In this document: one piece after another, positions 13-52,075 of the stretch | How the letters are laid out: each line of letters begins with the position of its first letter | Position numbering within the stretch: the first letter of the stretch is position 1 | DNA from: Prevotella sp. CAG:1058 | GTDB taxonomy: Bacteria > Bacteroidota > Bacteroidia > Bacteroidales > Bacteroidaceae | Assembly: GCA_963931425.1 (NCBI GenBank) | Contig: OZ007015.1 | Coordinates: 1,517,268-1,581,267, forward strand | Direction of reading: 5' to 3' | DNA length: 64,000 bases | Made by a program: the position numbers and the translations under genes | Notes under the pieces: model-generated | Database searches by the model: none | What the model was told of the DNA's origin: nothing | What the model saw: only the letters and a program-made list of their open reading frames with translations

Positions 13-120
13 TTAATGTGTTGATATTCAACGAGTTGCAATATGCCGTCTTTTGGCTTGTAAAAGGCGGCATATTGCACGCTAAAAGGCGGCCTTTCGC
101 AATGCAAAAGACCGCCTTTC
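13..120. repeat. Dispersed 22-bp-period palindrome array, copy 1 (anchor palindrome 13-39, then 4 units at 40, 62, 84, 106)
   Basis: Units AATATGCCGTCTTTT, AAAAGGCGGCATATT, AAAAGGCGGCCTTTC, AAAAGACCGCCTTTC are spaced exactly 22 bp apart and directly follow TGATATTCA-ACGA-GTTGC. Confidence 0.9.
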
Positions 121-145
121 ATAAATGGCCGGGTTGTGTGTTGTC

Positions 146-676
146 TTAAAGTTCGTGCAGCTCTTTCAGCTTGGCGGCGAGCTTTTCAATCATGACCGTC
201 GAGAGTATTATCTGCCCCTGGCGGTCGATCAGGTACATTGCCGGTATCCACTGTATGTTGTACTGCTTCGATATCTCTGTCTGTTTCCACTTCTTCAGTT
301 CGCTTAGGTTGAGCCAGTCCATGCCGTTGACCTCGATGTAGTTGGTCCATTTTGCTTTGTCGTCGTCGAACGACACGCTGACAAACTTGATGTTCTGCCC
401 GTATTTGGCGTAAAGTTCCTTAAGCATGGGCGTGTCCTTGCGGCAATCCGGGCACCATGATGCCCAGAAGTCGAGCACGACGTAGCTGCCGCGCAGCGAC
501 GACAGGCTGTGGCTGGTGCCGTCAGGGGCGGCCAGGGTGAAGTCGGGTGCTGTTGTACCGGGTTGCAACAGGTTCTTGGCGTATTGGGCGTCGGCGTCCT
601 GTGCCGCTGCGCCTACGGTCATGGCCAATGCAAGGGCCACTGACATGAAGATGCGTTTGATTGTCATAAATTTCAT
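146..676 (-). CDS. TlpA/ResA-like thiol-disulfide oxidoreductase (AhpC/TSA family) with signal peptide
   Basis: Motif VVLDFWASWCPDC, APDFTL, WIPAMYLID, hydrophobic N-terminus. Start could be 697, 676 or 667. Confidence 0.9.
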   Translation of the reverse strand: MKFMTIKRIFMSVALALAMTVGAAAQDADAQYAKNLLQPGTTAPDFTLAAPDGTSHSLSSLRGSYVVLDFWASWCPDCRKDTPMLKELYAKYGQNIKFVSVSFDDDKAKWTNYIEVNGMDWLNLSELKKWKQTEISKQYNIQWIPAMYLIDRQGQIILSTVMIEKLAAKLKELHEL

Positions 677-770
677 CGTTTTTGTTTGTTTGAACATTAA
701 TTTATTGCGCCTTGGCGGTAAGGCAGTGCGGTGGCAGGCTCCTGCCTGTGTGGATTCGGCTTTGCCGGAG

Positions 771-1667
771 TCAGTTCTTGACCATCCTTGTATCTGCTCC
801 CCACATCATTTTCTCGCGCAGCGTGGAGAAGTAACGCTGGTTGCTGCGCTTCACAATCCTTGCCGAATAGGGTGCCTTGGTTATGGTCAGCCGGGCGTTC
901 TCAGTGCATTTGCCCGATTGTCCGTCGACGGCTATCAGGAAGTTGTGGCTGCGGCTCTCAACGGTCAGCGTTATCTCGGAGTCGTCGGGGATGACTATCG
1001 GGCGTACGTTGAGGCTGTGTGGTGCTACGGGCGTAAGGCATAGCGTGCCCGTGCGCGGCACTATTATGGGGCCGCCGTTTGACAGCGAGTAGGCCGTAGA
1101 GCCTGTCGGCGTGCTTACGATGAGGCCGTCGGCCTGGTAGGTCACGAGGTATTCGCCGTTTATTTCGGCGTGTATCGTAATCATCGACGCCGTGTCGCGC
1201 TTGAGTACGGCTATGTCGTTAAGCGCGCAGTCGGGGCATACGGGTTCGCCGCCCTCAACCTCGACGCGTATCACCGAGTGCGGCTCTATGGCGTAGTCGT
1301 CTTCGTACAGCGAGTTGATGGCGCTTTCGATCTCGCTCGGCACGATGTCGGCGAGGAAGCCCAGGCGGCCCATGTTGATGCCGAGTATGGGCGTGCCCTT
1401 CGAGCCTACGAGCCATGCGGCCCTGAGCAGGGTGCCGTCGCCGCCGAGCGAGATGACGAAGTCGGCCGTAAAGTCGCACCCGTCGAACACCTCGACGCAG
1501 CCCCGGGGTATCATGCCCGAACTTACCAGGAAATCGTAAAAGGCCTTTTCCATGCACAAGTCGGCGCCGTGTGCGGCCAGGCATTCCATAATCTTCAGGA
1601 TGTTTGCCGACTTGCGGCTCTGGTAAATGTTTCCGAACAGGGCGAACCTTAACTTACGTGACACCAT
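771..1667 (-). CDS. nadK: NAD kinase
   Basis: SLGGDGT, GINMGRLGFL, ALND, DGLIVSTPTGSTAYSLS motifs. Start MVSRKL chosen; the ORF track extends to 1724. Confidence 0.95.
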   Translation of the reverse strand: MVSRKLRFALFGNIYQSRKSANILKIMECLAAHGADLCMEKAFYDFLVSSGMIPRGCVEVFDGCDFTADFVISLGGDGTLLRAAWLVGSKGTPILGINMGRLGFLADIVPSEIESAINSLYEDDYAIEPHSVIRVEVEGGEPVCPDCALNDIAVLKRDTASMITIHAEINGEYLVTYQADGLIVSTPTGSTAYSLSNGGPIIVPRTGTLCLTPVAPHSLNVRPIVIPDDSEITLTVESRSHNFLIAVDGQSGKCTENARLTITKAPYSARIVKRSNQRYFSTLREKMMWGADTRMVKN

Positions 1668-1728
1668 GATTTTTGAGCTTTTAAATTTCTTTTTACACAT
1701 GTAATGCTTGGAAATGCCAAACATTTTG

Positions 1729-10448: not shown

Positions 10449-10557
10449 AAGAGGCCGCCTTTTAGGCTGCAAAAGGTGGCTTTTCGGGCTGTAAAAGGAT
10501 ACCTTTTGCAGCCTGAAAGGTTATGTATTGGAAACTGCCTGGTAATCACGTCGTTAC
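10449..10557. repeat. 22-bp-period palindrome array, copy 2 (units 10449, 10471, 10493, 10515; anchor 10531-10557)
   Basis: AAGAGGCCGCCTTTT, AAAAGGTGGCTTTTC, AAAAGGATACCTTTT, GAAAGGTTATGTATT, then GAAAC-TGCC-TGGTAATCA-CGTC-GTTAC. Confidence 0.88.
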
Positions 10558-14740: not shown

Positions 14741-14849
14741 AAAAGGTTGCTTCCGGGACGATGAAAGGTAACCTATTGCAACGCAAAAGGATGCCTTTTA
14801 CAATGCGAAAGGCATCCTTTTGTAATTATACTGATTATCAATAAGTTAC
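14741..14849. repeat. 22-bp-period palindrome array, copy 3 (units 14741, 14763, 14785, 14807; anchor about 14822-14849)
   Basis: AAAAGGTTGCTTCCG, GAAAGGTAACCTATT, AAAAGGATGCCTTTT, GAAAGGCATCCTTTT, then GTAATTATAC-TGATTATCA-ATAA-GTTAC. Confidence 0.9.
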
Positions 14850-14892: not shown

Positions 14893-15816
14893 TCAGCCGG
14901 CGTCGTGCTTAATGTTGCGCGGATGGTGTTCAAGTATCTCGCGTCGCAGTTCGTGGGTGTCAATGTGCGTGTATATTTCCGTAGTGCCTATGCTCTCGTG
15001 CCCGAGCATTGCCTGTATGGCGCGCAGGTCGGCACCGCCGGCAAGCAGCGCCGTTGCGAAGCTGTGGCGCAGCGTGTGCGGACTTATTGTCTTGCTTATG
15101 CCCGCCTCCTCGCCGAGGCGTTTTATCATTATGAGAATCATTGTGCGCGTAAGGTGCGCCCCGCGGCGGTTGAGGAACACGTAGTCCTCTTCGCCCGGCT
15201 TTATGTCCATCAGGTTGCGGTCTATGAACCACAGTTGCAACTGCCTTACCGCGCTCTCCGATATGGGCACGAGCCTCTCCTTGCGCCCCTTGCCAACAAC
15301 CCTTACGAAGTGTTCTTCAAGGTAAAGGTCTGACAGACGCAGCGTTACAAGCTCGCTTACACGCAGTCCGCAGCTGAAAAGCACCTCTATAATGGCCTTG
15401 TTGCGCTGCCCCTCCCATTTCGATAGGTCGATGGCCTGCTCGAGGCGGTCAACCTCCTCGGTTGTCAGGACTTCGGGCAGATGGTCGCCGAGCTGTGGCG
15501 ACTCGAGCAGCTCGGACGGGTCGTCACTTATGTATCCGTCAACCTGGAGATAGTGGTAGAACGTCCTCACGCCGCTCAATATGCGGCACTGCGAGCGCGC
15601 CCCTACGCCTATCGAGTGCAGGTTGGCGGCAAAGGCCTGCAGGTCTTCCAGCCGTGCGGCCAGCGGGTCGATGCCCTGCTCGCCGAAATAGGCCAGCAGC
15701 TTCTCTATGTCGTGCGAATATGCGTCGAGCGTGTTGGGCGTGAAGTTGCGCTCGAGTTTCATGTAGCGGCGGTAGGCGGCTACAAGATTAGACGCCTTTT
15801 TGTTTACTGTTTCCAT
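14893..15816 (-). CDS. xerD: Site-specific tyrosine recombinase XerD-like
   Basis: LFSCGLRVSEL, GKGRKERLVP, SPHTLRHSFAT, LGHESIGTTEIYTH. The xerC versus xerD call rests on similarity and adjacency to aroQ. Confidence 0.85.
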   Translation of the reverse strand: METVNKKASNLVAAYRRYMKLERNFTPNTLDAYSHDIEKLLAYFGEQGIDPLAARLEDLQAFAANLHSIGVGARSQCRILSGVRTFYHYLQVDGYISDDPSELLESPQLGDHLPEVLTTEEVDRLEQAIDLSKWEGQRNKAIIEVLFSCGLRVSELVTLRLSDLYLEEHFVRVVGKGRKERLVPISESAVRQLQLWFIDRNLMDIKPGEEDYVFLNRRGAHLTRTMILIMIKRLGEEAGISKTISPHTLRHSFATALLAGGADLRAIQAMLGHESIGTTEIYTHIDTHELRREILEHHPRNIKHDAG

Positions 15817-30316: not shown

Positions 30317-30398
30317 TATCAATACATACGGGCGTTTGTTGTCCCAGCGTTGTCTGGTGGCGGCAAACGCCTTAAAATATTCATTAAACATTCAATAC

Positions 30399-33300: not shown

Positions 33301-33752
33301 GCGTTAAGTATCTTACGCTCGGCTACAACGACGGAAAGATTATCGAAGACCTAGCAGCCGGCAGGGCTGACGGCACGTCGATGGTCATCAACGCCACCGC
33401 TCCGGGCGAGTTTGACACCGGACGCTATGTTGCGTGGGTGGCTGCAGGCGACGATCTGTTCTTCTATGACCAGTCGGCCAACGCTTACTACGAGAACGGT
33501 ACGCCGTCGTCGATCACCGATGTCATCGAAGGTTCGGGCATAAGCATTACCACAGGAGCCGGCTTCATAGCAGTCGACGGAGTCGAGCCGGGCAGCATCA
33601 TTACCTGCACGTCGGCCTCGGGCGCATTGCTTTACAGCGGCAAGGCAGGCGGCAGCCATGCCAAGATAAGCCTGCCCGGAGAAAGCGGCATTGTGATAGT
33701 GAATATCGAATGCGGCGGCAAGACTTACAGGACAAAGGTGATAGTTAGATAA
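30399..33752 (+). CDS. T9SS-secreted M6 (immune inhibitor A-like) metalloprotease with FN3 and cleaved-adhesin (choice-of-anchor J) domains
   Basis: QPDG..I.VRIHGDE propeptide, HEFGHILGLKD (HExxHxxGxxD), LENRQKTGWD, WQIVDRNGDG...DDWLIS, CTD ending KVIVR. Confidence 0.9.
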   Translation: MKILKKLLVGLGLLLCVPQDADAVKAYPRPVTITQPDGTKITVRIHGDESFHYTTTIDGFMLEMDKAGFFRYVDYDFKTGKKTLSALRARNVGERTAEEKTFVANLKAATLITADMKTRRPLTLKQPGRTVRPWLEKQSAAKANAANAAAARTVSGDCEYLVILVNFADSTFKYKNEDFETWLNEPGYSTNGGTGSVKDYWRDNSMGQFVPNFTVVGPYTLSKPLVAYAGNAEDTGEDIDPRSMIKEACQLAKEANPGLDFSKFDNDGDGVVDNCYVIYAGYSEASTANPNDMWPHSWTMGDDVFEIDGVKIDEYSCSAELVGMPGAPAVPTMDGIGTFTHEFGHILGLKDMYDTDDYTNGYGVDPGAYSLYASGSYNNDSRTPPCLMAFERLQMGWAKEGVDIVELKDAEDVTLDNVATNKARYINAQPDREPGTGYEWFVLENRQKTGWDSYIPAHGLLIYHYDYTQEMVDEYWSVNGPNNNANHRCMYIKAADGVDDENSRAGDTYPGTSANTEFTDTSTPNSLNWSNEPVNVPVTNIIEQDGIIRFQVGGGTSTWDFVKTNVPTDIRDVSATFTAEMSGNTAEVTETGFCWSLEENPTVEGEHKTAAMADGKFSAAVDNLQPGSNYNVRAYVKMAGGEVVYGSSVLFTTECKTGEVPFVADFMSWTNGQPDCWQIVDRNGDGTTWILDESTGAIVYQFDYWNNADDWLISKRRIHVPENGTLFFSRGVAETTTVEDLEIYVSTKTSDIDDFFLIERMSFADYFSEQHIEEVDLSRFAGQDIYIAFRCCSEKLQTNLWIWQIAVTEKLGTPTVTKFDKTGTDQLTVEWTPVDKAAYYYLYFGKETDEPNYVLLFTPVSFFEKVEGDVQLSTGSMLFTGGATVELIDIPEGIDDLKFMATASGPTGSSTLLVEGTTDGSTWTSVGPRVVFSEYDSEGQECDWQSYVEGKGYKKLRFRFTHGGRNGRVKYLTLGYNDGKIIEDLAAGRADGTSMVINATAPGEFDTGRYVAWVAAGDDLFFYDQSANAYYENGTPSSITDVIEGSGISITTGAGFIAVDGVEPGSIITCTSASGALLYSGKAGGSHAKISLPGESGIVIVNIECGGKTYRTKVIVR

Positions 33753-33816
33753 AAAAATAACGCGAATGTACCCGCTGTCCGTGCCACGCATGGCCGTATC
33801 AAATTACAAGGTTTGC

Positions 33817-33914
33817 AAAAGACGGCATATTGCCGCGTAAAAGGCGACCTTTTACAGCCTGAAAGACGGCCTTTTGCATCGCTGGAGGCAACACGCTGAA
33901 AGCCAGCTGGTTAC
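33817..33914. repeat. 22-bp-period palindrome array, copy 5 (units 33817, 33839, 33861; anchor 33888-33914)
   Basis: AAAAGACGGCATATT, AAAAGGCGACCTTTT, GAAAGACGGCCTTTT, 12-nt gap, GCAAC-ACGC-TGAAAGCCA-GCTG-GTTAC. Confidence 0.88.
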
Positions 33915-33986
33915 CTCCGGGATAAAAAACAAAGCCGGTGCGGACGGCAGGGACGCTCGCCGTAGAAACAATAAACATACGTAACA

Positions 33987-36900
33987 ATGAAAATACGCAA
34001 TTACATTTTGTCGTTAGTGGCGGCAGCCGGGTGCGCCGTCTGCGTGGCTGCGATAGCCGACGGGCGCAATGACGACAAACAGGAGAAAGTGAAGCCGGCG
34101 GAAAACATGCCCGCCAAGGTCGACACGCAGCGGTCGCCCTATTCGCTGATTAACCTTGCAGGCAGCGAGGACGGCATACCTTACGGCCTCCGCCTGATGG
34201 AGGTCGACAATAAGGATGTGTCGCTAAGCTGGAACACTCCCGAGGCCACGGACGGCTATTGGGACGACTTCGAGACGCACGACGACTTCGTAATCAACTC
34301 GCCCGGCAGTGTCGGCTGGCAGTATATCGACGCCGACAACGCGAGGACGTACACGTGGCAGGCCTGCACCTTCCCCAATATGGGACAGAAGATGGCCTTC
34401 ATCGTGATGAACCCGTCGATGACATCGCCGGCGACAGACACCAACCCTAACTATAAACCATTCTCGGGCAATAAGATGCTGGTTGACTTCTGCGCGGCAG
34501 ATGTGCCAAACAACGACTTCATAATATCGCCTGAACTCAACTTCTCGAGCGACTTCAAAATCAGCTTCCGCGCACGCAGCTACAATGACGCTTATGCGCT
34601 TGAGCGCATCCGCGTGGGCTATTCTACCACTGGCATAAGCCCGTCAAACTTCACATGGGTGCAAGGAGGCGACTACGTGGAGCTTCCGGCAGAGTGGAAC
34701 TTGTATGAATACGAGATACCCCAGGAGGCCAAGTATGTTACCATCAACTGCGTATCTGACGATGCCTTCATGCTGCTCATCGACGACATCTTCGTCGGTA
34801 CGAACGAAGTACGCCCGGGCGTGATGCCGATGAAAGCTCCTGCCGCCGGGGCGAAGCTCACCGGCTTCAACATATACCGTGACGGCACAAAGGTTAACCA
34901 GGAACCTGTCACCGAGATAAGATATACCGATACGGTTGACGACTACGGCACATTCAGCTATACGGTAGCCGCCGTTTATTCTGACGGCAGCGAGTCGGAG
35001 AAGTCTGACGCGTTGCAGGTTGAAGTGCCTGACATCAGGCTTCTGCCTTTTGAGGACGACTTCGAGACATGGACTTTGGCCGAAGACAAGTGGAGCACGA
35101 TGAACGGCGACGCATACGATGTGAACAACTGGAGCATAGACTACTATGCTACAGGCCTGGTTGACCCGTGCGCCACGTTCAGATATTCAAACCTGGTGAA
35201 CTACGACCAGTCGCTTGTCACCCGTGAACTGAACACTGAAAACAGGGGCGCTACTTACCTGCGCTTCAACCTGAAGCTGCAGAATGAACGCCACGAGAAC
35301 GACGACTACCTTGCAGTGGAAGTAACCAGCGACGGCGGAAAGACGTGGAAGAACGTTGCGACGTTTGACAACAAGCAGGGCGCATTCGACTGGAAAGTAT
35401 GCCAGTACAACATCGGCGGCCTGCTCGACAGCAACCTTTTCCGTATCCGTTTCCGTGCTTACGGCGCCATTTCGACATATATCGACTACTGGTATGTTGA
35501 CGACATAAAGGTCTGGAACCCCGAATGGACAACGGCAACGCTCACCGTAATGTCGGCCGACGGAGCTGTTGCAGGCTGCCCCGTGACGCTTACCGGCAAT
35601 TCGGGAGGCGTGTACACAGCCACCACCGGCGATGACGGCAAGGTCGTATTCGATGAAATCGAGGACGACACATACACCGTGTCAATCGTGAACGACGGCT
35701 ATAACATATACGAAAGCGAGTGGACCGTAAGCAAGGAAGGTGAAAACGCATTCACCGCTGAGCTTAAACGGCCTGTTATGACATTGTCGTCAACCGACGT
35801 GGCAGCCGAAATCGTGGCTGAAAGCAGCATCGAGAAGACCGTCACATTGAGCAATACCGGCGACGGCCCGATGACATGGTATCTCAACACGCAGCATAAG
35901 GCAGGCAGCGGCGACGCGTCACGCCTTTGGGAAATACAGGGCACGTTCACCGCGTCCGGCGACCTCCAGTCGTGCGTTGCGTTTGACGGCGAGAACTATT
36001 ACACCAGCTCTTCAATCGAACTTGGCGAGTTCTGGAAGTACGACAAGGACGGAACACTCGTTGAACGCTTCCGTCTGCCTGACATGTACTTCCCCGTTTA
36101 CGACCTCACTTTTGACGGACGCTACTTCTACGGAGGCGACGGCACCAACCGTGTGTTCAAGTTCGACTTCTACAACAAGCGCGTGGCCGACATCATTACG
36201 GTTGATGCCGAGCCGGGTCTGGAAATCACCCACTGCTGCTATGACCCCGACCTTGGCGGCCTTTGGATTGGCGGATGGAATACGTTGGGTCTTATCGACA
36301 TGACAGGAAAAATAATAGTGTCGGTTGAGAACTTTGACCCTAACACGACGCTTTCGGTCATTGGTTCTGCCTATGACAATGTTACGCCCGGCGGCCCTTA
36401 CCTTTGGCTGGCCGACGGATCGTCGTCTGAAACCATGATTGACCGCGTTGCGATACATCAGTACAATATTAATGAAGCACGCCTTACCGGCGTAAGCCAT
36501 CTCGCAACCGACGTTCCGGGTTACAAAATCGGCAATGCCTCAACAGGAGTGAACAGGATTGGTGGTCTGTCGTCGTCGTTCGACATAAAGAACGGAACGC
36601 TTACGCTCACCGGAGTGCTGCAGCAGTCGCCCGGATTAATCTTCAACTACACTCTGTGTGAAATAGGAGAATGGGTTGAAATGTCGCCAAAGCACGGCAC
36701 GCTTCAGCCCGGCGACAGCCAGGACATCACTTTCGGCTTCAATTCAGTTGACGCAAAGAAGGGTGACAAGTTTGAGACTACAGCTGAAATACTGACCGTT
36801 CCCGAACTTGGAGAGCAGTCATTGGCTGTAAGTATGGACGTTAATGCCGATGCAGCGTCGCCGCGTCCTGTAGAGCTTAAGGCCGAACCGGGACAGGCTT

Positions 36901-39900
36901 CGGTACAGCTTACATGGAAACCGGGCGACGAAAGCCGTGCGCCGATGGGTTACAATGTTTACCGTGACGGCACTAAGGTGAACACTGAAGCCGTTACAGA
37001 GACGGCGTTCACGGACGACAAGCTTGTTTACGGAGAGTATTATTATAAGGTGACGGCCGTTTATGACGGTGGTGAAGAGTCGCTCCCGTCAGACTCCGTG
37101 GCAGCTTTCGTAAAGCAGGGCGCGCAGTATTACGCTCCGCTTGAGCCTGCCGCAGTGGTTGAAGGCAACAATAACGTCAACCTGACGTGGAAATCTCCGC
37201 TTGTAAATGCTGGCGAGAGCAACAGCGTATCATGGTCAACCGGCGTATATGCTGATGCAATGGGCGTTGCCGACGGTGGCACTTTCTATGCCGCTTCGGA
37301 TTGGACTGCCGAAGACCTTGTGCCTTACCGCAACAAGCGTGTGTCGTCAGTGTCGGTACAACTCGTCAACCCTTGCTCGTATCTTAGACTGTTCGTGTAT
37401 AAGGACGGAGAAAGTGTTTACTCGAAAACGTACAACGGCAACATCTTGTATGACGGCACATATACCGACGTAACCATTGACGAGCCGCTCCTCATTGAGC
37501 CGGGTGCGGAGTACAGGTTTGCCTTCCAGCTGCAGAATGCGCAAGGCATAAAGCCGTTGGGTATGGACGCCAGCCAAGCAGTTGACGGCAAGGGCAACCT
37601 CCTGTCGATAGACGGAGAGACATGGTTCCCGGCTTCTTACCAAGGCATCGCCGGCAACTTTAACATAAAGATTGACGTTGTTCCTGATGAAAGCATGGTC
37701 GAAGAGGCTCCTTCAGGCTACAATGTGTACCGCGACGGAGAGAAGGTTAATGACAAACCCGTTACTGCCACGAGCTATACTGACGTTGTAAGCGAGTCAG
37801 GAACTCACGAGTACACCTTAACGTCGGTTTATTCTGACGGCGGAGAGTCGGCTGAAAGCGAGAGTGTAAGCGTTGAGATAGTCGGCATATACGGTCCTTA
37901 CGCACCTTCTGCGGTTGATGCGGACGTGCACATCAACAGGGATGTAACTCTGTGCTGGGACTATCCGACGGACGGCACGCATACATTGAAGGCTGACATC
38001 ACGACCCGTCCGGTGACGGTAGACGACAACATGCCCGAATATGTCAATTCTTTCACCGGCCATGACGAGGGTGTTGAGATGGGTATAGCGTCAGACAACA
38101 ACTTCATCTACACCTCCACTTACTCTAAGGACGGTTATGTGAACAAGTACTCGATGGACGGAGAGTACATCGAAAGCTTTACAATAGACGGCATCGAGGG
38201 AATAAGGAACATCGTTTACGATGGCACCGACTTCTATGTAGGCGATTACAGCACCAACATTTACAAGGTTGACATGGAGGCGCACATGGTTCTTGCCACG
38301 ATGACCATTTCCGAGTTCTCTCGCCATCTGGCATACATCCCCGAGCTTGACGGCGGCAACGGCGGCTTCGAGGTTGGCGACTGGGAGACCAGTATCTATG
38401 TAAGGAAGGACGGAAGCAAGATTGGCAACGGGCCTACTTTGCTCGGAGCGAGCGGCACGGCATATAATGACGGCCTGCTGTATGCCTTCGAACAGGGCGG
38501 TGACAATACCCGTACAATAGGCATATACGACTTCGCGACTTCTCAACGGGTGGGCAGCATCGACGTGACTGCTTACTCTGAGATAACAGGAATATCAACA
38601 GCTTCAGCCGGAGGTATGTCTGTTGTGTCGCGTCCCGACGGTTCTAAGTTCCTTGCCTTGGCGCTGCAACGCCAGGACGACAACACCAAGTTCGCATTCA
38701 TCGAGCTTGAAGGCGTAAGCGGAGTGACGGGCTATAACGTCTACCGCAACGGCGAGCAGGTGAACGACGAACCGCTGACACGCCGCTATTTTGCGGAAAG
38801 TCTTGACAATGAAGGCTCTTACAAGTATGAAATCGAGACGGTTTATATTGACGGAAGCAAGTCTGACAGCCGTGCAACGGTAGACATACAAATCCAGCCC
38901 AAGGGCACGGCAGAAGTGCCTGAAGACGTCAAGGCCGTGCAGTCTACCTACGGTTACAACGTGCTCCTCTCGTTCGCCGATCCGCAGATGAACGACGGCG
39001 CAGCCAAGGCCGAGAGCTTCGAGACTGCCAATGCGCAGGAACCTGTCAGCGTAGAAGGCTGGATAAACAAGGCTGACGCATGGAAGGTGACAGCCGACTA
39101 TGCTTACGAAGGCATCAAGGCAATGGAAGCCGAAGGCGACGGCGAGGCCACAATGATACTCTCTGTGGATGGAATGGCAAGCCTGAAGATGGCCGTGCGC
39201 AACGCCGACGACCATAACGGACACGGCTCAATAAGCCTGTTGCGCTCGATAGGCGGCACCGATGACGCCGACTTCATACAGATGAACGCATACCAGACCA
39301 ATGAGGCCTGGACTGAAATCGAAGCCGACATACCCGAAGGCACAGAATATCTGGCGATAAGGAAACCGGCCGGCATCGAGACACAGTTCATCGATGCAGT
39401 ACGCCTGTTCACGCAGAAGACACCGTCAAGCGTGTACGCTTACGACATATTCCGCAACGGTGAGCAGATAAACGAGCAACCCGTAACGGGCATAAGCTAC
39501 ATAGACCGCAACCTCGTGCCAGGACACTATGACTACCAGGCACGCCTTACCACGACTTTGTCGGCCGTCAGCGAACTGTCAGACAAGGTGGGCATCGACC
39601 TCGACTACGACAACGGAGGCCTCGCACCGACAGGCCTTAAGGCCGGTTATGAAGCCGACGGCAGCGTGAAACTCAGCTGGCAGTTCCCCGCACTGGGCGA
39701 ACCTATATATCTGCGCTGGCACGACGGCAACAGCTATGACGCCGGAGGCGTGGCCAACGGTGGCTCGTTCTTCGCCGGAGCACGCTGGTATGCGTCAGAC
39801 CTGAAGGACTATGAGCAGCTGTCGCTTACAGATGTAGAGTTCTACATCAACCAGATACCAGACGCTCTGTTCGTTCTCGTTTACGAGGGCAGCACGCTCG

Positions 39901-40721
39901 TGCGCCAGCAGTACGTGTCAGACCTGCGCCAGTACTCGTTCAACAACGTGAAGCTTGACGAGCCGCTCGCCGTCAACACGTCGAAAGACCTGCTCGTGGC
40001 CATATACATAGAGCACAACGAGATAACCGCACCGCTTGGCTACGACGCCGGTCCTGCCAACAACGGACGTGGCAACCTCTACTCCAGCGACGGCCAGACA
40101 TGGAGCCTGTTGAGCGACTCCGAGACAGGCATTGACGCCAACTGGAACATCTCGATAGGGCTTAGTCCTTATTCTAATGCCCCGCTCGAGCCTAACGGTG
40201 CCATGAAGGCACAGCGCAAGGCGTTTGCTCCCAAGAAGCAGGCCAGCCCCGTCAAGCTCTTGTCAGTGCCTGCCGGCAGCCAGTCGGCATCGCAGAAAAA
40301 CGCCTTCATGGGCTACAACGTGTACCGCAACCACGAGCGTCTCAACAGCGAAACGGTAACTGAAACGTCGTACATCGACGCAACACCGGCCGACAACAAA
40401 TATCTTGAATACCAGGTATCGGCCATCTACTCAGTATCGGGCGAGAAGCTCTCGGCACCCGTGACGCTCACAGCCACCGGCATAGACGGCGTCGAGGTTT
40501 ACAGCGGAATGCGTGTTACGGTTGAACGCGGCGACATCCTTGTCCACGGAGTCAGCGCCGGAACGCCCGTATGCCTGTACGATGTCAACGGCGCCATGAT
40601 ATACAAGGGCATTGCAGCCGAAGCCGGCGTACACGTAATAACTGGTTCAGGCATTGCCGACGGTACATACATCGTCAAGGCAGGCAACGCCACGGCCAAG
40701 TTTGCCAAGAACGGTAAATAA
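33987..40721 (+). CDS. 2244-aa T9SS-secreted multidomain adhesin-like protein (cleaved-adhesin domains, six FN3-like GYNVYRDG modules, two propeller-like regions, Asp-box)
   Basis: Signal peptide, WQYIDADN...NNDFIISPEL, VTSDGGKTW, six G/A-Y/F-N/D-V/I-Y/F-R-D/N motifs, CTD with LYDVNG...GTYIVK. Confidence 0.85.
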   Translation: MKIRNYILSLVAAAGCAVCVAAIADGRNDDKQEKVKPAENMPAKVDTQRSPYSLINLAGSEDGIPYGLRLMEVDNKDVSLSWNTPEATDGYWDDFETHDDFVINSPGSVGWQYIDADNARTYTWQACTFPNMGQKMAFIVMNPSMTSPATDTNPNYKPFSGNKMLVDFCAADVPNNDFIISPELNFSSDFKISFRARSYNDAYALERIRVGYSTTGISPSNFTWVQGGDYVELPAEWNLYEYEIPQEAKYVTINCVSDDAFMLLIDDIFVGTNEVRPGVMPMKAPAAGAKLTGFNIYRDGTKVNQEPVTEIRYTDTVDDYGTFSYTVAAVYSDGSESEKSDALQVEVPDIRLLPFEDDFETWTLAEDKWSTMNGDAYDVNNWSIDYYATGLVDPCATFRYSNLVNYDQSLVTRELNTENRGATYLRFNLKLQNERHENDDYLAVEVTSDGGKTWKNVATFDNKQGAFDWKVCQYNIGGLLDSNLFRIRFRAYGAISTYIDYWYVDDIKVWNPEWTTATLTVMSADGAVAGCPVTLTGNSGGVYTATTGDDGKVVFDEIEDDTYTVSIVNDGYNIYESEWTVSKEGENAFTAELKRPVMTLSSTDVAAEIVAESSIEKTVTLSNTGDGPMTWYLNTQHKAGSGDASRLWEIQGTFTASGDLQSCVAFDGENYYTSSSIELGEFWKYDKDGTLVERFRLPDMYFPVYDLTFDGRYFYGGDGTNRVFKFDFYNKRVADIITVDAEPGLEITHCCYDPDLGGLWIGGWNTLGLIDMTGKIIVSVENFDPNTTLSVIGSAYDNVTPGGPYLWLADGSSSETMIDRVAIHQYNINEARLTGVSHLATDVPGYKIGNASTGVNRIGGLSSSFDIKNGTLTLTGVLQQSPGLIFNYTLCEIGEWVEMSPKHGTLQPGDSQDITFGFNSVDAKKGDKFETTAEILTVPELGEQSLAVSMDVNADAASPRPVELKAEPGQASVQLTWKPGDESRAPMGYNVYRDGTKVNTEAVTETAFTDDKLVYGEYYYKVTAVYDGGEESLPSDSVAAFVKQGAQYYAPLEPAAVVEGNNNVNLTWKSPLVNAGESNSVSWSTGVYADAMGVADGGTFYAASDWTAEDLVPYRNKRVSSVSVQLVNPCSYLRLFVYKDGESVYSKTYNGNILYDGTYTDVTIDEPLLIEPGAEYRFAFQLQNAQGIKPLGMDASQAVDGKGNLLSIDGETWFPASYQGIAGNFNIKIDVVPDESMVEEAPSGYNVYRDGEKVNDKPVTATSYTDVVSESGTHEYTLTSVYSDGGESAESESVSVEIVGIYGPYAPSAVDADVHINRDVTLCWDYPTDGTHTLKADITTRPVTVDDNMPEYVNSFTGHDEGVEMGIASDNNFIYTSTYSKDGYVNKYSMDGEYIESFTIDGIEGIRNIVYDGTDFYVGDYSTNIYKVDMEAHMVLATMTISEFSRHLAYIPELDGGNGGFEVGDWETSIYVRKDGSKIGNGPTLLGASGTAYNDGLLYAFEQGGDNTRTIGIYDFATSQRVGSIDVTAYSEITGISTASAGGMSVVSRPDGSKFLALALQRQDDNTKFAFIELEGVSGVTGYNVYRNGEQVNDEPLTRRYFAESLDNEGSYKYEIETVYIDGSKSDSRATVDIQIQPKGTAEVPEDVKAVQSTYGYNVLLSFADPQMNDGAAKAESFETANAQEPVSVEGWINKADAWKVTADYAYEGIKAMEAEGDGEATMILSVDGMASLKMAVRNADDHNGHGSISLLRSIGGTDDADFIQMNAYQTNEAWTEIEADIPEGTEYLAIRKPAGIETQFIDAVRLFTQKTPSSVYAYDIFRNGEQINEQPVTGISYIDRNLVPGHYDYQARLTTTLSAVSELSDKVGIDLDYDNGGLAPTGLKAGYEADGSVKLSWQFPALGEPIYLRWHDGNSYDAGGVANGGSFFAGARWYASDLKDYEQLSLTDVEFYINQIPDALFVLVYEGSTLVRQQYVSDLRQYSFNNVKLDEPLAVNTSKDLLVAIYIEHNEITAPLGYDAGPANNGRGNLYSSDGQTWSLLSDSETGIDANWNISIGLSPYSNAPLEPNGAMKAQRKAFAPKKQASPVKLLSVPAGSQSASQKNAFMGYNVYRNHERLNSETVTETSYIDATPADNKYLEYQVSAIYSVSGEKLSAPVTLTATGIDGVEVYSGMRVTVERGDILVHGVSAGTPVCLYDVNGAMIYKGIAAEAGVHVITGSGIADGTYIVKAGNATAKFAKNGK

Positions 40722-40770
40722 CGCCCGGGTTGACCGCTAAATAGTCTGCTGGCAGTCAGCAGCACTTCAC

Positions 40771-40805
40771 AAAGCCACCTTTTGCCTCGCAAAAGGTGGC
40801 TTTTC
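40771..40805 (+). terminator. Intrinsic terminator of the adhesin gene, built from two units of the 22-bp repeat family
   Basis: AAAGCCACCTTTTG-CCTCG-CAAAAGGTGGCTTT followed by TCTTGT. Confidence 0.75.
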
Positions 40806-40895
40806 TTGTATGTGGTATTATGCCGCCCCATTGTATTATTCCCCAAACTATCCGCCTGCCGGTGCCGTTTGGGCATGCAGTTTTATGTCATGCTT

Positions 40896-41003
40896 GCAAC
40901 ATGTTGATATTCAACGCGTTGCAAAAGGTCGTCTTTTGCATTATAAAAGGTAACCTTTTAGCGCCTCAAAGACGGCCTTTTACGTTGCAATATGCCGCCT
41001 TTT
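40896..41003. repeat. 22-bp-period palindrome array, copy 6 (anchor 40896-40922; units 40923, 40945, 40967, 40989)
   Basis: GCAAC-ATGT-TGATATTCA-ACGC-GTTGC immediately followed by AAAAGGTCGTCTTTT, AAAAGGTAACCTTTT, CAAAGACGGCCTTTT, AATATGCCGCCTTTT. Confidence 0.92.
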
Positions 41004-43458: not shown

Positions 43459-43620
43459 CGCGTCAAGGTGAAGAGTCGGGAACAAAGGGTGAAGAATGTG
43501 GAGGTCTGGTAGAGGCGGCAAAAACGTCGACAGGAGCGTGGCGTGCGCTTTCATGCAGCCTGATTCTTACCTTGGTGTTGCTCGATTCATGACAATTTTG
43601 AATAATAAAAACAGGGAGTT

Positions 43621-45669: not shown

Positions 45670-45767
45670 AAAAGATGCTCTTTTAAACTGTAAAATGGCA
45701 TCTTTCATGAGCTAAAAGAGCATCTTTTGCAATGGCGAATATAAAGTATTGATTTTCAATAACTTAT
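45670..45767. repeat. 22-bp-period palindrome array, copy 7 (units 45670, 45692, 45714; anchor 45741-45767), inside the exporter operon
   Basis: AAAAGATGCTCTTTT, AAAATGGCATCTTTC, AAAAGAGCATCTTTT, 12-nt gap, ATAAA-GTAT-TGATTTTCA-ATAA-CTTAT. Confidence 0.85.
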
Positions 45768-47040: not shown

Positions 47041-47047
47041 TTCTTTT

Positions 47048-47222
47048 AATTCATAATTCACAATTCATAATTCATGATTGCGCCGGATGATAATCACAGT
47101 TCACAATTCATAATTCATGATTGGGCTGGGTGGTAATTCATAATTCACAATTCATAATTCATGATTGGGCTGGATGATAATTCATAATTCACGATTCATA
47201 ATTTATAATTGGGCTTGTGAGT
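47048..47222. repeat. Tandem repeat: 4 x 43-44 bp, each of four AATTCA(T/C) heptamers plus GATTGGGCTGGATGAT
   Basis: Units at 47048, 47092, 47135 and 47179, read directly from the sequence. Confidence 0.9.
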
Positions 47223-49704: not shown

Positions 49705-49775
49705 CGCCGTGGCAGGCTGCATAAAGGCCTTGGACACAGACCGACGGCAATGGTTATACTTAATAAGGAAAGATT

Positions 49776-51113
49776 ATGTTAGTACATAAATTTATTGTAA
49801 CAATATTTTTTCTCCTGGCTGCCATTATGGCTTCGGCGCAGCAGAAGAAGGCGTGGACCTTGCGCGAGTGCATCGACTACGCGCTTGAGAACAATATAAC
49901 AGTGAAGCAACAGGACGTGAAGAGACGCCAGGGCGAGATAGACTTGAGTACGGCTAAGAACAGCCGGCTGCCCGACCTGAGCGCGTCGGCGTCGCAGAAC
50001 TGGTCGTTCGGGCGCGGACTGACCTCGGACAACACGTATTCAAACCAGAATACGGGAAGCACTTCGTTCAGCCTCGGCACGAGCGTACCGCTCTTTACGG
50101 GTTTCAGCATACCGCGCACGATAGAGCTTAACAAGCTTAACCTTGAGGCGCTGACGGCCGACCTTGCCAAGGCACGCGACGATGTAAGCGTGCAGGTGGC
50201 GCAGGCATACGTGCAGATACTTTACGGCATGGAGCTGCGCGACGTGGCGCAGCGCCAGATAGCCATTGACTCGATGCAGGTGGAGCGCCTGAGCGAGATG
50301 TACCGTACGGGCAAGGCGAGCGGCGTTGAGGTGGCGCAGCAGAAGGCGACGCTTGCCCAAAGCCGCCTGACGTACACCCAGGCCGACAACGACTACCGGC
50401 TGGCATTGCTCTCGCTGGCGCAGTTGCTCGAACTGCCCACACCCGAAGGCTTCGCCATTGTGCGTCCGGATGCAGCAGCACTTACGGTCGGCGGCGGCGC
50501 AGGCATGCCCCTGCCCGACGAGATATACCAGGAGGCTGTAGCCGTGAAGCCGGAAGTAAAGGCCGAGGCGTACCGCCTGAAAGGAGCTGAAATGAACATA
50601 AAGCTGGCCAAGAGCGCGCTGCTGCCGACGCTGTCGCTCACGGCAGGACTCGGCTCCAACTATTACAAGACGAGCGGTCTGGAAGCAAAGTCGTTCGGCT
50701 GGCAGATGCGCAACAACTTCAGCCAGTACGTGGGCTTCAACCTAAGCATACCCATATTCAACCGCCTTGCCACACGCAACAACATACGCACCGCGCAGCT
50801 GAACCATGAGACGCAGCAGTTGCAGCTGGAAAACGTGAAGAAAAGCCTGTACAAGGAAATACAGCAGGCGTACTATAATGCCCTGGCGGCCAAGGCGCAG
50901 TATGAAAGCAGCCGCGAGGCGGTGGCAAGCAACAAGGCTGCCTTCGACCTGATGTCGGCAAAGTACGAATATGGCAAGGCCAACATAACTGAGTTCAACG
51001 AGTCGAAAAACAACCTGCTGAAGGCCGAGAGCGACCTTGCGCGCTCGAAATACGAGTACATGTACGACATGAGCCTTATAGACTTCTACCGCGGCAGGAG
51101 CCTCGACTTCTGA
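49776..51113 (+). CDS. TolC family outer-membrane efflux protein
   Basis: WTLRECIDYALENN, RLPDLSASASQ, LSIPIFN, KYEYGKANITE. Confidence 0.93.
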   Translation: MLVHKFIVTIFFLLAAIMASAQQKKAWTLRECIDYALENNITVKQQDVKRRQGEIDLSTAKNSRLPDLSASASQNWSFGRGLTSDNTYSNQNTGSTSFSLGTSVPLFTGFSIPRTIELNKLNLEALTADLAKARDDVSVQVAQAYVQILYGMELRDVAQRQIAIDSMQVERLSEMYRTGKASGVEVAQQKATLAQSRLTYTQADNDYRLALLSLAQLLELPTPEGFAIVRPDAAALTVGGGAGMPLPDEIYQEAVAVKPEVKAEAYRLKGAEMNIKLAKSALLPTLSLTAGLGSNYYKTSGLEAKSFGWQMRNNFSQYVGFNLSIPIFNRLATRNNIRTAQLNHETQQLQLENVKKSLYKEIQQAYYNALAAKAQYESSREAVASNKAAFDLMSAKYEYGKANITEFNESKNNLLKAESDLARSKYEYMYDMSLIDFYRGRSLDF

Positions 51114-51162
51114 CGCTTGCAGGCATGTAACTGTAACAAAACGACATAACAATTAATCAACT

Positions 51163-51927
51163 ATGAAACAGAACGTATTCATTTTAGCGGCGGCTGCCAT
51201 GTTGGCGGCATCGTGCAGCGTAAGCATCAATGGCAATGGCGGCAGCCTGCCTCCTGCCGGTAGTGCCAAGGCCGCCGTACATGCAGCCGAAAGCGCTGCG
51301 GCAAAAGGGTTTACAGGAATAAGGATAAACGGCGGATATGATGTCTATTACACGCCGGGCGCCCAAACAAGCATAAGGCTGGAGGGAGATGCTGACTGCA
51401 TAAGGCGCACCATAGTGGAGAACAAGGGTAACACCCTGATAATATCGCCGGCGAAGGGAAAGGGCTTTTTCAAGTCAAACGATCAAGACGTCGACATTTA
51501 CATCACCTCTCCTGCAATTTCGAACGTCAGTGTTAAAGGCTCGGGCGACTTCACTGCGAAAGGCGACATCAGCACCCGGAAGTTCTCTGCAGCAATAGCC
51601 GGTTCGGGCGACGTAAGGATGAGAGGCGTCACTGCGGACGCGATAAGCGTAAGCGTTTCAGGCTCTGGCGACGTTGAAATTGGTGCGGCAAAGGCCGGAG
51701 TGGCAGAGTTCTCGATATCAGGTTCGGGCGACATTGGCGTGAAAGACATCAAGGCCGGCAGCGTGAAGGCGAGAATTGCCGGTTCGGGCGATGTGGAAAT
51801 GGCACGCGCCGACATAGGTAAGGCTTCATGCTCGATAGCTGGTTCGGGCGACATAAGTATAAAAGGCAGTGTGGACAGACTTGAAAAGTCGGTTGCCGGA
51901 TCGGGCACGGTGTCGGTAAGCCGGTAA
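51163..51927 (+). CDS. Head GIN domain (DUF2807) lipoprotein
   Basis: Lipobox AASC and repeated (I/V)(S/A/K)GSGD(V/I/F) beta-helix motifs. Confidence 0.88.
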   Translation: MKQNVFILAAAAMLAASCSVSINGNGGSLPPAGSAKAAVHAAESAAAKGFTGIRINGGYDVYYTPGAQTSIRLEGDADCIRRTIVENKGNTLIISPAKGKGFFKSNDQDVDIYITSPAISNVSVKGSGDFTAKGDISTRKFSAAIAGSGDVRMRGVTADAISVSVSGSGDVEIGAAKAGVAEFSISGSGDIGVKDIKAGSVKARIAGSGDVEMARADIGKASCSIAGSGDISIKGSVDRLEKSVAGSGTVSVSR

Positions 51928-51994
51928 TGCTGAAACGCCTTGCGTGACGTGCCTGTCAATCGTCGTGACACCGCCCGTAAAACAGGCGTGTCGT

Positions 51995-52075
51995 GAAAGG
52001 CCGCCTTTGAGGCCGCGAAAGGTAACCTTTTAGAGCGTGAAAGGTTACCTTTTACATCCTAAAAGGTAACCTCTT
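51995..52075. repeat. 22-bp-period palindrome array, copy 8 (units 51995, 52017, 52039, 52061; only a half anchor at 52111)
   Basis: GAAAGGCCGCCTTTG, GAAAGGTAACCTTTT, GAAAGGTTACCTTTT, AAAAGGTAACCTCTT. Confidence 0.88.

Follow-up and report, generated by a model that had tools for sequence, protein, structure and literature searches.

A dispersed ~115-bp repeat element with a palindromic head and a 22-bp-period body in Prevotella

The loci and the anatomy of the element

The window analysed here is a stretch of 64,000 nt from Prevotella sp. CAG:1058 (assembly GCA_963931425.1, contig OZ007015.1, positions 1,517,268-1,581,267 of the forward strand). It carries the following arrays of short palindromic units, their palindromic anchors (or heads), and associated genes, with the strand given where one is assigned.

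13-39: copy 1 anchor (head palindrome), TTAATGTGTTGATATTCAACGAGTTGC; PWM 22.4, gap to array 0
40-120: copy 1 array, four units (starts 40/62/84/106); unit 1 is the AATATGCC variant
10449-10529: copy 2 array, four units (starts 10449/10471/10493/10515), divergent intergenic
10531-10557: copy 2 anchor, GAAACTGCCTGGTAATCACGTCGTTAC; PWM 15.4, gap 1 from a degenerate unit 4
14741-14821: copy 3 array, four units (starts 14741/14763/14785/14807), convergent intergenic
14823-14849: copy 3 anchor, TAATTATACTGATTATCAATAAGTTAC; PWM 16.0, gap 1, 44 bp from the XerD-type stop codon
14893-15816, reverse strand: XerD/XerC-type tyrosine recombinase gene (Pfam PF02899 and PF00589), candidate partner
27432-27458: copy 4 anchor, GCAAGCCCTTGATATTCAACGCGTTGC; PWM 25.8, gap 22, left edge of the 13.4-kb variable segment
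27459-40895, forward strand: three-gene cluster of 13.4 kb, missing in some strains, flanked by two direct anchor copies
27481-27546: copy 4, two units (starts 27481/27503) and a second, weaker anchor-like palindrome (27519-27545)
33817-33875: copy 5 array, three units (starts 33817/33839/33861), between co-directional genes
33888-33914: copy 5 anchor, GCAACACGCTGAAAGCCAGCTGGTTAC; PWM 23.8, gap 12
40769-40805: solo inverted doublet, two units, AAAGCCACCTTTTGCCTCGCAAAAGGTGGCTTT then TC
40896-40922: copy 6 anchor, the best copy, GCAACATGTTGATATTCAACGCGTTGC; PWM 27.3, gap 0, right edge of the variable segment
40923-41003: copy 6 array, four units (starts 40923/40945/40967/40989)
45670-45728: copy 7 array, three units (starts 45670/45692/45714)
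45741-45767: copy 7 anchor, ATAAAGTATTGATTTTCAATAACTTAT; PWM 21.5, gap 12
51995-52075: copy 8 array, four units (starts 51995/52017/52039/52061), convergent intergenic, without anchor
62553-62579: lone anchor-like site without array, GTAACTGCTTAACAATAAGCCGCTTGC; PWM 14.9

All eight loci of the original prediction lie where it placed them, seven with an anchor (PWM above 12 at 13, 10531, 14823, 27432, 33888, 40896 and 45741, with gaps to the array of 0, 1, 1, 22, 12, 0 and 12) and the one at 51995 without, but a ninth array (40769-40805) and the lone anchor-like site at 62553 had been missed. The exact 22-bp step between unit starts holds in every array of the window.

A complete copy, some 115 bp long, consists of the anchor and four units. 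The 27-bp palindrome of the head reads GTAAC-N4-TTGAWWWTCAA-N4-GTTAC. The units had been described as 15-bp palindromes separated by a free 7-bp spacer; the palindrome stands, but its symmetry was understated, with the unit consensus TGY-AAAAGG-YnR-CCTTTT-RCA comprising 21 symmetric bp plus 1. Dyad axes thus recur every 11 bp on a single lattice common to head and body, and A4 and T4 tracts alternate along the body with the same 11-bp step.

The units are also more than the plain repeats first described, in that the body is built of two tandem 37-bp inverted repeats, each with 15-bp arms on either side of a 7-bp spacer. Exactly four units are spanned by 156 of the 266 arrays in the genome, and among these, unit 1 comes within one mismatch of the reverse complement of unit 2 in 33 arrays, and unit 3 within one of that of unit 4 in 35, against about seven expected by chance in each case. 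No other pairing within four-unit arrays is in excess, all being at or below expectation, and the register of the array is anchor-[1:2]-[3:4]. In about 75% of unit pairs complementarity is at chance level.

Genome-wide census, placement and constraint

The eight loci belong to a genuine repeat element of some 115 bp, which occurs about 260 times in this genome and has apparently not been described before. The 3.63-Mb genome contains approximately 264-266 arrays of AAAAGG-N3-CCTTTT units, bearing out the proposed dispersed REP/MITE-like family. The unit motif has 906 genomic matches (≤2 mismatches), with 312 in the first Mb versus 36 in a shuffled Mb, and the unit pattern read backwards, used as a control, gave 0 matches in 41 genomes. 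Spacings between neighbouring units are not broadly distributed but concentrated at 22 bp genome-wide (408 at exactly 22 bp, 48 at exactly 44 bp, one at 21 bp and one at 25 bp). The predicted coupling of anchor and array is likewise found: 44 of the 54 anchor matches (≤2 mismatches, versus 3 in shuffled sequence) adjoin an array, and the gaps between the two are quantised, taking only the values 0/1 (60), 12/13 (30) and 22-24 (14). By PWM, an anchor is found beside 102 of the 264 arrays, flanking 100 of them on a single side and two on both. Since roughly 60% of arrays lack a recognisable head, the head is not essential to whatever the arrays do.

We further note that 97% of the arrays are intergenic and that they occupy every intergenic type roughly by its length (0.34 arrays per kb in tandem, 0.42 in divergent and 0.49 in convergent intergenic DNA), so that they are not restricted to gene 3' ends, as had been anticipated. 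Anchor side is random with respect to transcription direction (27:27), and a genome-wide search for replichore bias found none. This presence in all intergenic types, together with random orientation, indicates that the elements are not terminators. Action at the RNA level, with hairpins in the transcript terminating transcription bidirectionally, stabilising mRNAs or acting as small RNAs, is accordingly very improbable, even though hairpins with an A-tract, GC core and T-tract resemble bidirectional terminators and density is mildly raised in convergent regions (p = 0.03). The doublet at 40769-40805, with a predicted 14-bp hairpin (z = -6.2), starts 48 bp past the stop of a 2244-aa gene and is followed by a T-run, which also suits such a role. 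Against it, 65 arrays lie between divergent gene pairs, where no transcript ends, units show no internal covariation and an Rfam search returned no match.

Comparison among strains shows five loci fixed in position. The copy 2 array (10449) occupies the same position in 5/5 other strains sampled, the copy 3 array (14741) has nearly no variation among seven other strains and the copy 8 array has one variable site only across ten. One strain has an additional 22-bp unit in the copy 5 array, at 33854, and units 2-4 of the copy 6 array are mosaic between strains with the register preserved. No recent copies were found by comparing copies within the genome, no target duplications were found at the elements and no matching RAYT is present in the genome; the elements are not currently transposing in this species. 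Within the species, segregating sites make up 7.3% of unit cores, 7.0% of flanking intergenic DNA and 16% of heads (all from four loci only); by this measure, unit cores are not clearly under stronger constraint than the intergenic DNA beside them.

The family occurs in a single GTDB genus only, Prevotella, where it is patchy over species and its unit cores are species-specific. Presence and absence vary at orthologous sites between species, with 12/16 syntenic sites empty. Where orthologous elements do occur (L048 and L056), there are zero indels over head and units, whereas the adjacent intergenic DNA is unalignable; in the L056 species, anchor, gap and units of the copy 7 orthologue (45670) are all free of indels. 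Conservation of spacing rather than sequence, claimed originally for the copies of the window, thus holds both between copies and between orthologues in different species.

These patterns bear on the view that the elements are neutral relics, left by a selfish element with a minisatellite that expanded through the genus long ago and is now decaying. We consider this unlikely, and consider it equally unlikely that the exact period arose from unit duplication and template switching at quasi-palindromes instead of from function. The lack of recent copies, fixed positions, cores as polymorphic as flanks, unit numbers differing between strains, patchy distribution and the chance-level complementarity of most unit pairs are all consistent with relics. 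Decay, however, would be expected to blur cores and spacing alike. Nearest-neighbour identity between copies is 0.77 versus 0.74 in column-shuffled controls and spacers are almost randomised, yet the period is exact, with just 2 departures from 22 bp in ~410 neighbour spacings. Similarly, orthologues at ~20% coding divergence have no indel in ~105 bp alongside indel-rich intergenic DNA, and the quantised head gaps also speak against decay.

The head, IS1595 insertion and the 13.4-kb indel

The head reads like a site for an IHF-type bending protein, and such binding is predicted. In a set of 100 anchors, one half of the palindrome comes within one mismatch of the IHF consensus WATCAANNNNTTR in 45% and the other half in 46%, compared to 0.26% of intergenic 13-mers, although this consensus derives from Proteobacteria and the match is partly imposed by anchor selection (TCA and TT in the seed pattern). 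Among five heads from other species inspected by eye, four have one half perfect to WATCAANNNNTTR and the fifth is one mismatch away. IHF sites are commonly located near the ends of IS elements; two IS5-like families in this genome have a perfect WATCAANNNNTTR-type site ~60 bp from one end. The genome encodes four to five HU/IHF-family proteins. In CTnDOT recombination in vitro, E. coli IHF can take the place of the host factor from Bacteroides (PMC2034462), and thus IHF site preference is plausibly common to both groups. The consensus match would fit the originally proposed nucleation at the anchor, whereas the cooperative protein filament suggested with it is purely hypothetical.

The head serves as a landmark for other DNA transactions. 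Nine of the 15 copies of an IS1595-family element lie 6-11 bp from an anchor-like site (eight at 9-11 bp), and these sites score 12-25 where the 99th percentile of background is 7.9; from these insertions, the head is recognised in vivo. The second transaction is the 13.4-kb indel. In L126, L127, L130, L131 and L132, which lack the three-gene cluster, the left half of the anchor at 27432 is joined to the array at 40923, through a common 22 bp (TTGATATTCAACGCGTTGCAAA) inside the head. Run X16 shows the same junction, as a loose end, and the site without the cluster consists of a canonical head with four units.

This indel raises the question of whether the head is a tyrosine recombinase crossover site (Xer-, integron- or att-like) with two 10-bp inverted arms and a 7-bp centre. 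We think this doubtful, and no less doubtful that the array is an accessory arm and that site-specific recombination disperses or once dispersed the elements, leaving target sites unduplicated, with cassette-like gain and loss of clusters. The junction would fit, combining the left arm of one copy, the common core and the array of the other, as would the missing target duplications, which are expected of recombinase-mediated insertion. Yet it is the single such indel found, its 22-bp identity equally allows homologous or slipped deletion, the cluster contains no recombinase gene and a search for the circle junction in four metagenomes saw none.

A candidate enzyme exists, qualifying the original statement that the window holds no cognate protein: the XerD-type gene ending 44 bp from the copy 3 head, whose product scores 315.8 bits as NCBIfam XerD equivalog and exceeds the PRK00283 cut-off. 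Arrays also lie 3' of the xerD orthologue in G019 and Prevotella bivia, and the genome has 53 tyrosine-recombinase matches. In pristine copies the head alone forms a 12-bp hairpin, comparable to the hairpins of folded attC sites. However, XerD is a housekeeping gene found in element-free species too, and G023 has arrays but none beside its xerD. Moreover, about 100 proficient sites in both orientations would scramble the chromosome, whereas five loci are fixed among strains.

Inverted pairing and relation to known repeats

The inverted unit pairing, including compensated variants, is not explained by a plain duplex protein lattice and could also reflect a substrate that is single-stranded or cruciform. 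One such scheme is an orphaned REPIN-like system in which unit pairs act as ssDNA hairpins for an HUH (Y1, RAYT-like) transposase since lost. The inverted doublets with compensated variants, the folding of a pristine copy into three hairpins (-54 kcal/mol), the absence of target duplications and the species-specific, REP-like unit cores all point in this direction. The element-rich G019 carries one copy of a 174-aa Y1 gene, and an array lies 30 bp from the repeat that flanks this gene; Bacteroidetes contain Y1 subclasses with atypical flanking structures (PMC6006769). Nonetheless, we judge this scheme improbable. That Y1 gene has its own 110-bp inverted repeats, unrelated to the units. A search for a Y1 match in the genome studied here found none, and Y1 presence is uncorrelated with the elements, occurring in the element-free genus members G006, G010 and G013 and missing from the element-bearing G000, G023, G153, G195, G257 and G009. 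The unit consensus carries no GTAG or CGTC tag, and hairpins do not require an exact 7-bp linker between them.

We favour, at about even probability, an interspersed nucleoprotein element that acts at the level of double-stranded DNA, resembles REP, BIME and RIP and is found only in the GTDB genus Prevotella. Here we infer the binding protein and its identity, the bending of the DNA and a benefit to the host. A host IHF/HU-family or other dimeric protein would bind and bend the head, and the phased A/T-tract body would then provide curved DNA or repeated sites on the same face. Head and body together may form a compact nucleoprotein structure, a functional analogue of E. coli RIP/BIME-1.

The closest likeness to the Prevotella elements is found in the E. 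coli REP/BIME repeats, whose transposase they lack. They also differ from E. coli RIPs in placement, the latter lying at 3' ends of transcription units. In E. coli, BIME-1 includes an IHF site and IS elements use REPs as targets (PMC3333891, PMC1525189). RIP/BIME-1 joins REP units to an IHF site, as the Prevotella element joins its array to an IHF-like head.

A 22-bp lattice of inverted unit pairs

The original prediction described eight intergenic loci in the window, starting at 13, 10449, 14741, 27432, 33817, 40896, 45670 and 51995, in which 15-bp palindromic units (AAAAGG-N3-CCTTTT) begin exactly 22 bp apart, with a separate palindromic anchor at seven of them. All eight arrays are found in the window sequence as described, consecutive unit starts within each locus always lie 22 bp apart, and the seven anchors (or heads) stand 0, 1, 1, 22, 12, 0 and 12 bp from their arrays. 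The list of loci omitted a two-unit inverted doublet at 40769-40805, and the palindrome, though real, extends beyond 15 bp. The unit logo reads TGY-AAAAGG-YnR-CCTTTT-RCA plus one free base, and this additional symmetry places dyad axes every 11 bp. A4 and T4 tracts alternate at the same 11-bp spacing in the logo. A lone anchor-like site lies at 62553.

Across the genome, a single contig of 3.63 Mb with 47.6% G+C in which the window takes up bases 1517268-1581267, the pattern AAAAGG-N3-CCTTTT has 906 matches with at most two mismatches; the first Mb holds 312, as against 36 in a shuffled Mb. Distances between neighbouring matches genome-wide are 22 bp in 408 cases, 44 bp in 48, and 21 and 25 bp in one case each. 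Read backwards, the unit pattern has no match in 41 genomes. The lattice is real and far beyond chance. Chaining the units yields approximately 264-266 arrays and about 900 units in total; 156 of the arrays have a span of exactly four units.

Mirrored positions inside a unit pair no more often than independence predicts (for positions -1/15, 48% observed and 49% expected, and likewise for 5/9 and others). Given this absence of covariation, a model in which each unit forms its own hairpin was dropped in favor of pairing between units. In 33 of the 156 four-unit arrays, units 1 and 2 are reverse complements of each other with no more than one mismatch, and the same holds for units 3 and 4 in 35, where about seven are expected by chance in either case; the remaining combinations are at or below expectation. 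Compensated variants are found among some unit pairs (for example, GAGAGCTTGCC...GGCAAGCTCTC). The 1:2 and 3:4 pairing indicates that the body consists of two tandem 37-bp inverted repeats, each with a 15-bp arm, a 7-bp spacer and a second 15-bp arm, and anchored copies keep the register anchor-[1:2]-[3:4]. In another genome, G257, the unit cores are not themselves palindromic (AAAAGCATTGCTTTT / AAAAGCAATGCTTTT), yet they again form inverted pairs. Folded as single-stranded DNA, a pristine copy gives three successive hairpins (-54 kcal/mol, z = -13). The element begins with GTAAC and ends with CCTTTTRCAAA, with no conserved flank past the head. The unit foot carries neither a GTAG nor a CGTC tetranucleotide, its flanks in the logo being TGY and RCA. 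The Bacteroidetes promoter consensus (TTTG / TAnnTTTG), compared by eye, was rejected since the units carry a surplus T and their spacing is incompatible with it.

Measured against a home-made codon-bias call of 2645 genes, 97% of the arrays are intergenic. Tandem, divergent and convergent intergenic regions contain 128, 65 and 63 arrays, at 0.34, 0.42 and 0.49 arrays per kb of intergenic DNA, respectively, which is nearly proportional to length (p = 0.03). Anchor orientation shows no polarity with respect to transcription (27:27) or replichore (31:26 and 24:19). The arrays between divergent genes, one quarter of the total, rule out ordinary terminators and argue against a general role at the RNA level. 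Intrinsic terminators are further disfavored by this random orientation and by the distance to the nearest gene 3' end (median 114 bp), while isolated doublets such as 40769-40805 may still terminate transcription. A scan of the window at Rfam gathering thresholds returned two tRNAs and nothing at the elements. Together with the divergent arrays, this makes it extremely unlikely that the elements are RNA hairpins. Metatranscriptomes are uninformative on the arrays, being assembled contigs that break at repeats.

We further note several other sequence features. A terminator-like hairpin at window ~52125-52175 (arms GGATGAACC/GGTTCATCC) has its loop in one orientation in the window and in nine other strains but inverted in strain L156, a loop-flip polymorphism. 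An intergenic 44-bp-period tandem repeat of TAATTCA-like heptads lies at 47047-47215, and strain L133 carries another, distinct 44-bp tandem repeat (GTGAAGAGTGAAAAGTGAAGAGTGAA...; L133:4760-5000) as an insertion at the equivalent of window ~43460-43620. Tandem repeats with periods of 7, 15 and 30 bp (CTTGTCT-like) occur at 25424-25505 within a 587-aa minus-strand reading frame.

The anchor as a candidate protein site and a landmark

A PWM scan places the anchor on 102 of 264 arrays, on a single side in 100 and on both sides in two. The gaps between anchor and array are confined to 0/1 bp (60), 12/13 bp (30) and 22-24 bp (14), a quantization that puts the anchor dyad on the same 11-bp lattice as the units. 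The anchor logo is GTAA(C)-N4-TTGA-N3-TCAA-N4-TTAC, and each half repeats the letters and spacing of WATCAANNNNTTR, which we take from the E. coli literature to be the classical IHF consensus. This consensus is matched with at most one mismatch by 45% of array-proximal and 46% of distal anchor halves, compared with 0.26% of intergenic 13-mers, an enrichment that is partly inherent in the way anchors were selected. Among five heads from other Prevotella species compared by eye, four have one half that is a perfect fit to the IHF consensus, and the fifth departs from it by a single mismatch. At the sequence level only, an IHF consensus site is physically joined to the palindromic units. The genome encodes four to five HU/IHF-family proteins, with paralogues at genome positions 1092889-1093158 and 2649822-2650091 and a tandem pair at 2578511-2579076. 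[quoted passage not shown] We infer the binding protein, the bend and any benefit to the host: a dimeric bending protein would sit on the head, and the head-bound protein and the phased A/T-tract body would together form a compact nucleoprotein structure.

Anchor-like sites are also targets for a resident insertion sequence. An IS1595-family element of 1.07 kb with ends GGCTCTAGTT... is present in 15 genome copies (for example, G000:C1:1070657-1071727, 1173763-1174831 and 2336605-2337676), and for nine of these the edge of an anchor-like site is 6-11 bp away, with eight of the nine distances at 9-11 bp. The sites concerned score 12-25, where the 99th percentile of the background is 7.9. Either flank of the anchor can be occupied by the insertion sequence, which in two cases lies within unit 1 of an element. 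Strong target-site selection near anchor-like palindromes is thus a property of this IS1595-family element.

Two IS5-like families with ends ACGTGAGTTCGATATAAG and TACGCCAGTTCGGGATAAG (for example, G000:C1:436177-437205 and 681247-682309) carry a perfect WATCAANNNNTTR site about 60 bp from one end, a position near which IS elements often have IHF sites; in both families the site is part of an anchor-like motif. The ends of these families resemble those of P. gingivalis ISPg3/MITE239.

A three-gene 13.4-kb cluster (~27459-40895) is missing from five of ten sampled strains, and its empty site is a canonical anchor followed by four units. At the junction, the left arm of the 27432 copy is joined to the array of the 40923 copy through 22 bp common to both, which include the head core. 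The same junction occurs beside the filled allele in a bird-gut metagenome; in the four metagenomes searched, this junction was seen and no circle joint was found. These observations show that the 13.4-kb indel arose by recombination between two heads. Where present, the cluster (window 27788-40721) comprises three very large genes, large parts of which are less than 90% identical between strains (contigs of sequencing runs X7-X9).

This single exchange may have been either site-specific or driven by homology. An alternative reading of the head is a pair of inverted 10-bp arms flanking a 7-bp centre, and this 10-7-10 layout resembles tyrosine-recombinase core sites, which have inverted arms of 9-13 bp and a crossover region of 6-8 bp. 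With the indel junction falling inside the 22-bp identity that spans the core, the heads might be recombinase crossover sites; the same letters, however, fit an IHF-type palindrome and a homologous deletion may have produced the single indel, and we consider this explanation unlikely. The anchor of the third copy lies 44 bp from the end of an XerD/XerC-type recombinase gene (window 14893-15816, minus strand), and arrays lie downstream of the orthologous gene in G019, a relative, and in P. bivia but not in G023, another relative; a partnership with the elements is suggestive only. We regard as improbable the broader reading that head and array form a dedicated cis-acting module of the genus Prevotella for chromosome organization and recombination, in which an IHF-like double head would nucleate a complex that spreads or wraps along the 11-bp-phased lattice, while the heads would serve as Xer- or integron-like exchange points swapping clusters such as the 13.4-kb one between strains. 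If true, this would be a cassette system without known counterpart in Bacteroidota.

Larger duplications are present as well. A duplicated lone anchor pair at genome positions 1660165 and 1693207 was traced to a larger duplication of a region with a lipoprotein gene. Duplications of 12.8 kb (G000:C1:1-12808 and 3615856-3628656) and 26.8 kb (G000:C1:1183580-1210426 and 3528060-3554908) contain tyrosine recombinase gene clusters, which suggests that they are probably integrated mobile elements present twice.

Persistence, distribution and candidate mobilizers

Four-unit arrays have a nearest-neighbour identity of 0.77, compared with 0.74 after column shuffling. Recent transposition was rejected because identity is barely above this control and the few near-identical groups sit within larger duplications. 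The elements at 10449, 14741, 40896 and 51995 occupy the same positions on metagenome contigs from other strains, and at five loci no insertion polymorphism was seen within the species, every strain sampled being filled. The strain differences seen are substitutions, which form a mosaic in units 2-4 of the copy at 40896, plus one gain of a 22-bp unit at 33854. This additional unit, CAGCCTGAAAGACGGCCTTTTG, is found in the 33817 array in the isolate-like runs X7-X9, a number polymorphism in exact lattice steps. Segregating sites make up 7.3% of unit-core positions and 7.0% of flanking intergenic DNA, compared with 13% of spacer and 16% of anchor positions, with the low power of four loci. In strain L133, an unrelated insertion accounts for a length difference of 66 bp, and another difference of 176 bp is a 44-bp tandem repeat, not units.

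No target-site duplications were detected (the best combination of k-mer and offset reaches at most 13 of 100 for 3-mers, with nothing at k >= 4), and no terminal repeats are common to the element and any of the five resident IS families found, whose ends (GGCTCTAGTT, ACGTGAGTTCGA, TACGCCAGTTCGGG, ATGAATGTCCGC and TCATTAGTGTCCCG) are unrelated to the element ends. In both respects the element departs from a MITE mobilized by a DDE transposase.

Sixteen array loci of other Prevotella species have syntenic flanks in this genome, where four are filled and 12 are empty. The empty sites have neither anchor nor array, which indicates that the anchor belongs to the element and is not a pre-existing target. 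At two filled orthologues, L048 and L056, the coding flanks are about 80-82% identical and there are no indels over anchor and units, while the adjacent intergenic DNA is unalignable and differs in length by tens of bp; L048 retains the unit-specific centres too. Constraint on spacing and core is supported mainly by these indel-free orthologues and by the near-random spacers with an invariant period between copies. We give little credence to the view that the elements are neutral relics.

Of 12 species sampled from the same GTDB genus, six carry the double-unit pattern, the present genome included; beyond the genus it is absent from 189 genomes representing 28 further genera of the family and from 16 further families of the order. 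Matches per genome range from 0 to more than 200, and elements make up about 3% of intergenic DNA in some species and none in close relatives. Carriers include Prevotella histicola, P. bivia, P. brunnea, Xylanibacter brevis, Segatella baroniae and many gut and rumen MAGs. Among them, P. bivia DSM 20514 and P. histicola offer element-rich strains in culture. Unit cores are species-specific, with AAAAGCAGCCCTTTT in G023, AAAAGGGCACCTTTT in two further genomes (G153 and G195) and AAAAGCATTGCTTTT in G257. Phage carriage is essentially nil, with two matches in 2.9 million viral contigs.

The Y1/RAYT transposase (PF01797) has no match in the genome, and its presence does not correlate with element count across 41 + 7 genomes: it occurs in element-free species and is missing from several carriers. 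RAYT/Y1 was rejected as cognate mobilizer on these grounds, and the same observations make an orphaned HUH- or REPIN-like system a very unlikely origin. In the element-rich G019, a single-copy 174-aa Y1 (HUH) transposase with a YIKRQKEHH motif (L161 = G019:C63, 6480-7290) is flanked by its own inverted repeats of about 110 bp, unrelated to the units, and a four-unit array lies 30 bp beyond one of them.

Significance and comparison with known systems

Bacteria of the genera Prevotella and Segatella are keystone members of gut, oral and vaginal communities but genetically poorly tractable, and to our knowledge their non-coding DNA is almost unstudied. The present family is one at which short-read assemblies break, to which an insertion sequence is drawn and at which at least one strain-variable cluster ends. 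A rigid lattice long kept without an identifiable transposase offers a clean test of whether REP/BIME-type repeats are parasites or host-maintained architecture, and raises the question of which protein reads them. The fixed anatomy of head, quantized gaps and four units lends itself to binding assays and spacing mutants.

The R6K 22-bp iterons and P1 parS with its IHF site are likewise two-helical-turn repeats beside an IHF site, cooperatively bound on one DNA face. Iteron and partition arrays are single replicon loci with dedicated Rep or ParB genes, whereas the Prevotella element has hundreds of chromosomal copies and no Rep/ParB-like gene was identified.

No published description of the unit sequence or of a 22-bp Prevotella repeat was found in the papers searched, and the element is apparently undescribed; the described Bacteroidales repeats, BrickBuilt and PINSR, differ in anatomy. 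BrickBuilt of Porphyromonas gingivalis consists of spacer-less 23-nt tandem repeats between a leader and a tail, with IS5-type terminal repeats (PMC4596501). It shares the order, an intergenic location, a share of about 0.4-0.6% of the genome and internal repeats of about two helical turns. The Prevotella element, in contrast, has no leader, tail or terminal inverted repeats, and consists of four fixed palindromic 22-bp units in about 264 copies; sequence similarity is limited to CCTTTGCA-like words. PINSR is a 188-bp non-periodic repeat with about 180 copies in one clade, Prevotella intermedia/nigrescens (PMC4755523). It is similarly lineage-restricted and intergenic, without terminal inverted repeats and with positions mostly kept between strains, but by its description, rather than by sequence, it has neither 22-bp lattice nor anchor.

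The REPIN-RAYT systems of Pseudomonas and Enterobacteria resemble the element in their inverted doublets that form long hairpins, vertical persistence at conserved positions, lack of target duplications and patchy copy numbers among relatives. A REPIN consists of two REPs around a spacer, whereas the element has four units and a head, with no tracking Y1 transposase and no clusters of recent copies.

In E. coli BIME-1 (RIP/RIB: REP, IHF-site linker, inverted REP), an IHF site is attached to REP palindromes, strains differ in unit number and REPs serve as IS targets (PMC3333891, PMC1525189). Like REP/BIME, the Prevotella family comprises hundreds of short intergenic palindromes in inverted pairs within mosaic arrays, with strain-variable copy number and a species-specific consensus, and, as in BIME-1, a separate IHF-site motif is joined to them, here as judged from sequence. 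It differs in phylum and in having no GTAG tag, cognate RAYT or bias towards the 3' ends of transcription units. Its IHF-like site is a 27-bp palindrome at the element end, not a linker between REPs, and REPs have nothing comparable to its rigid 22/11-bp lattice with A4/T4 phasing. The reading with the best support is an interspersed mosaic element that would act at the DNA level and whose closest functional counterpart would be E. coli BIME-1/RIP.
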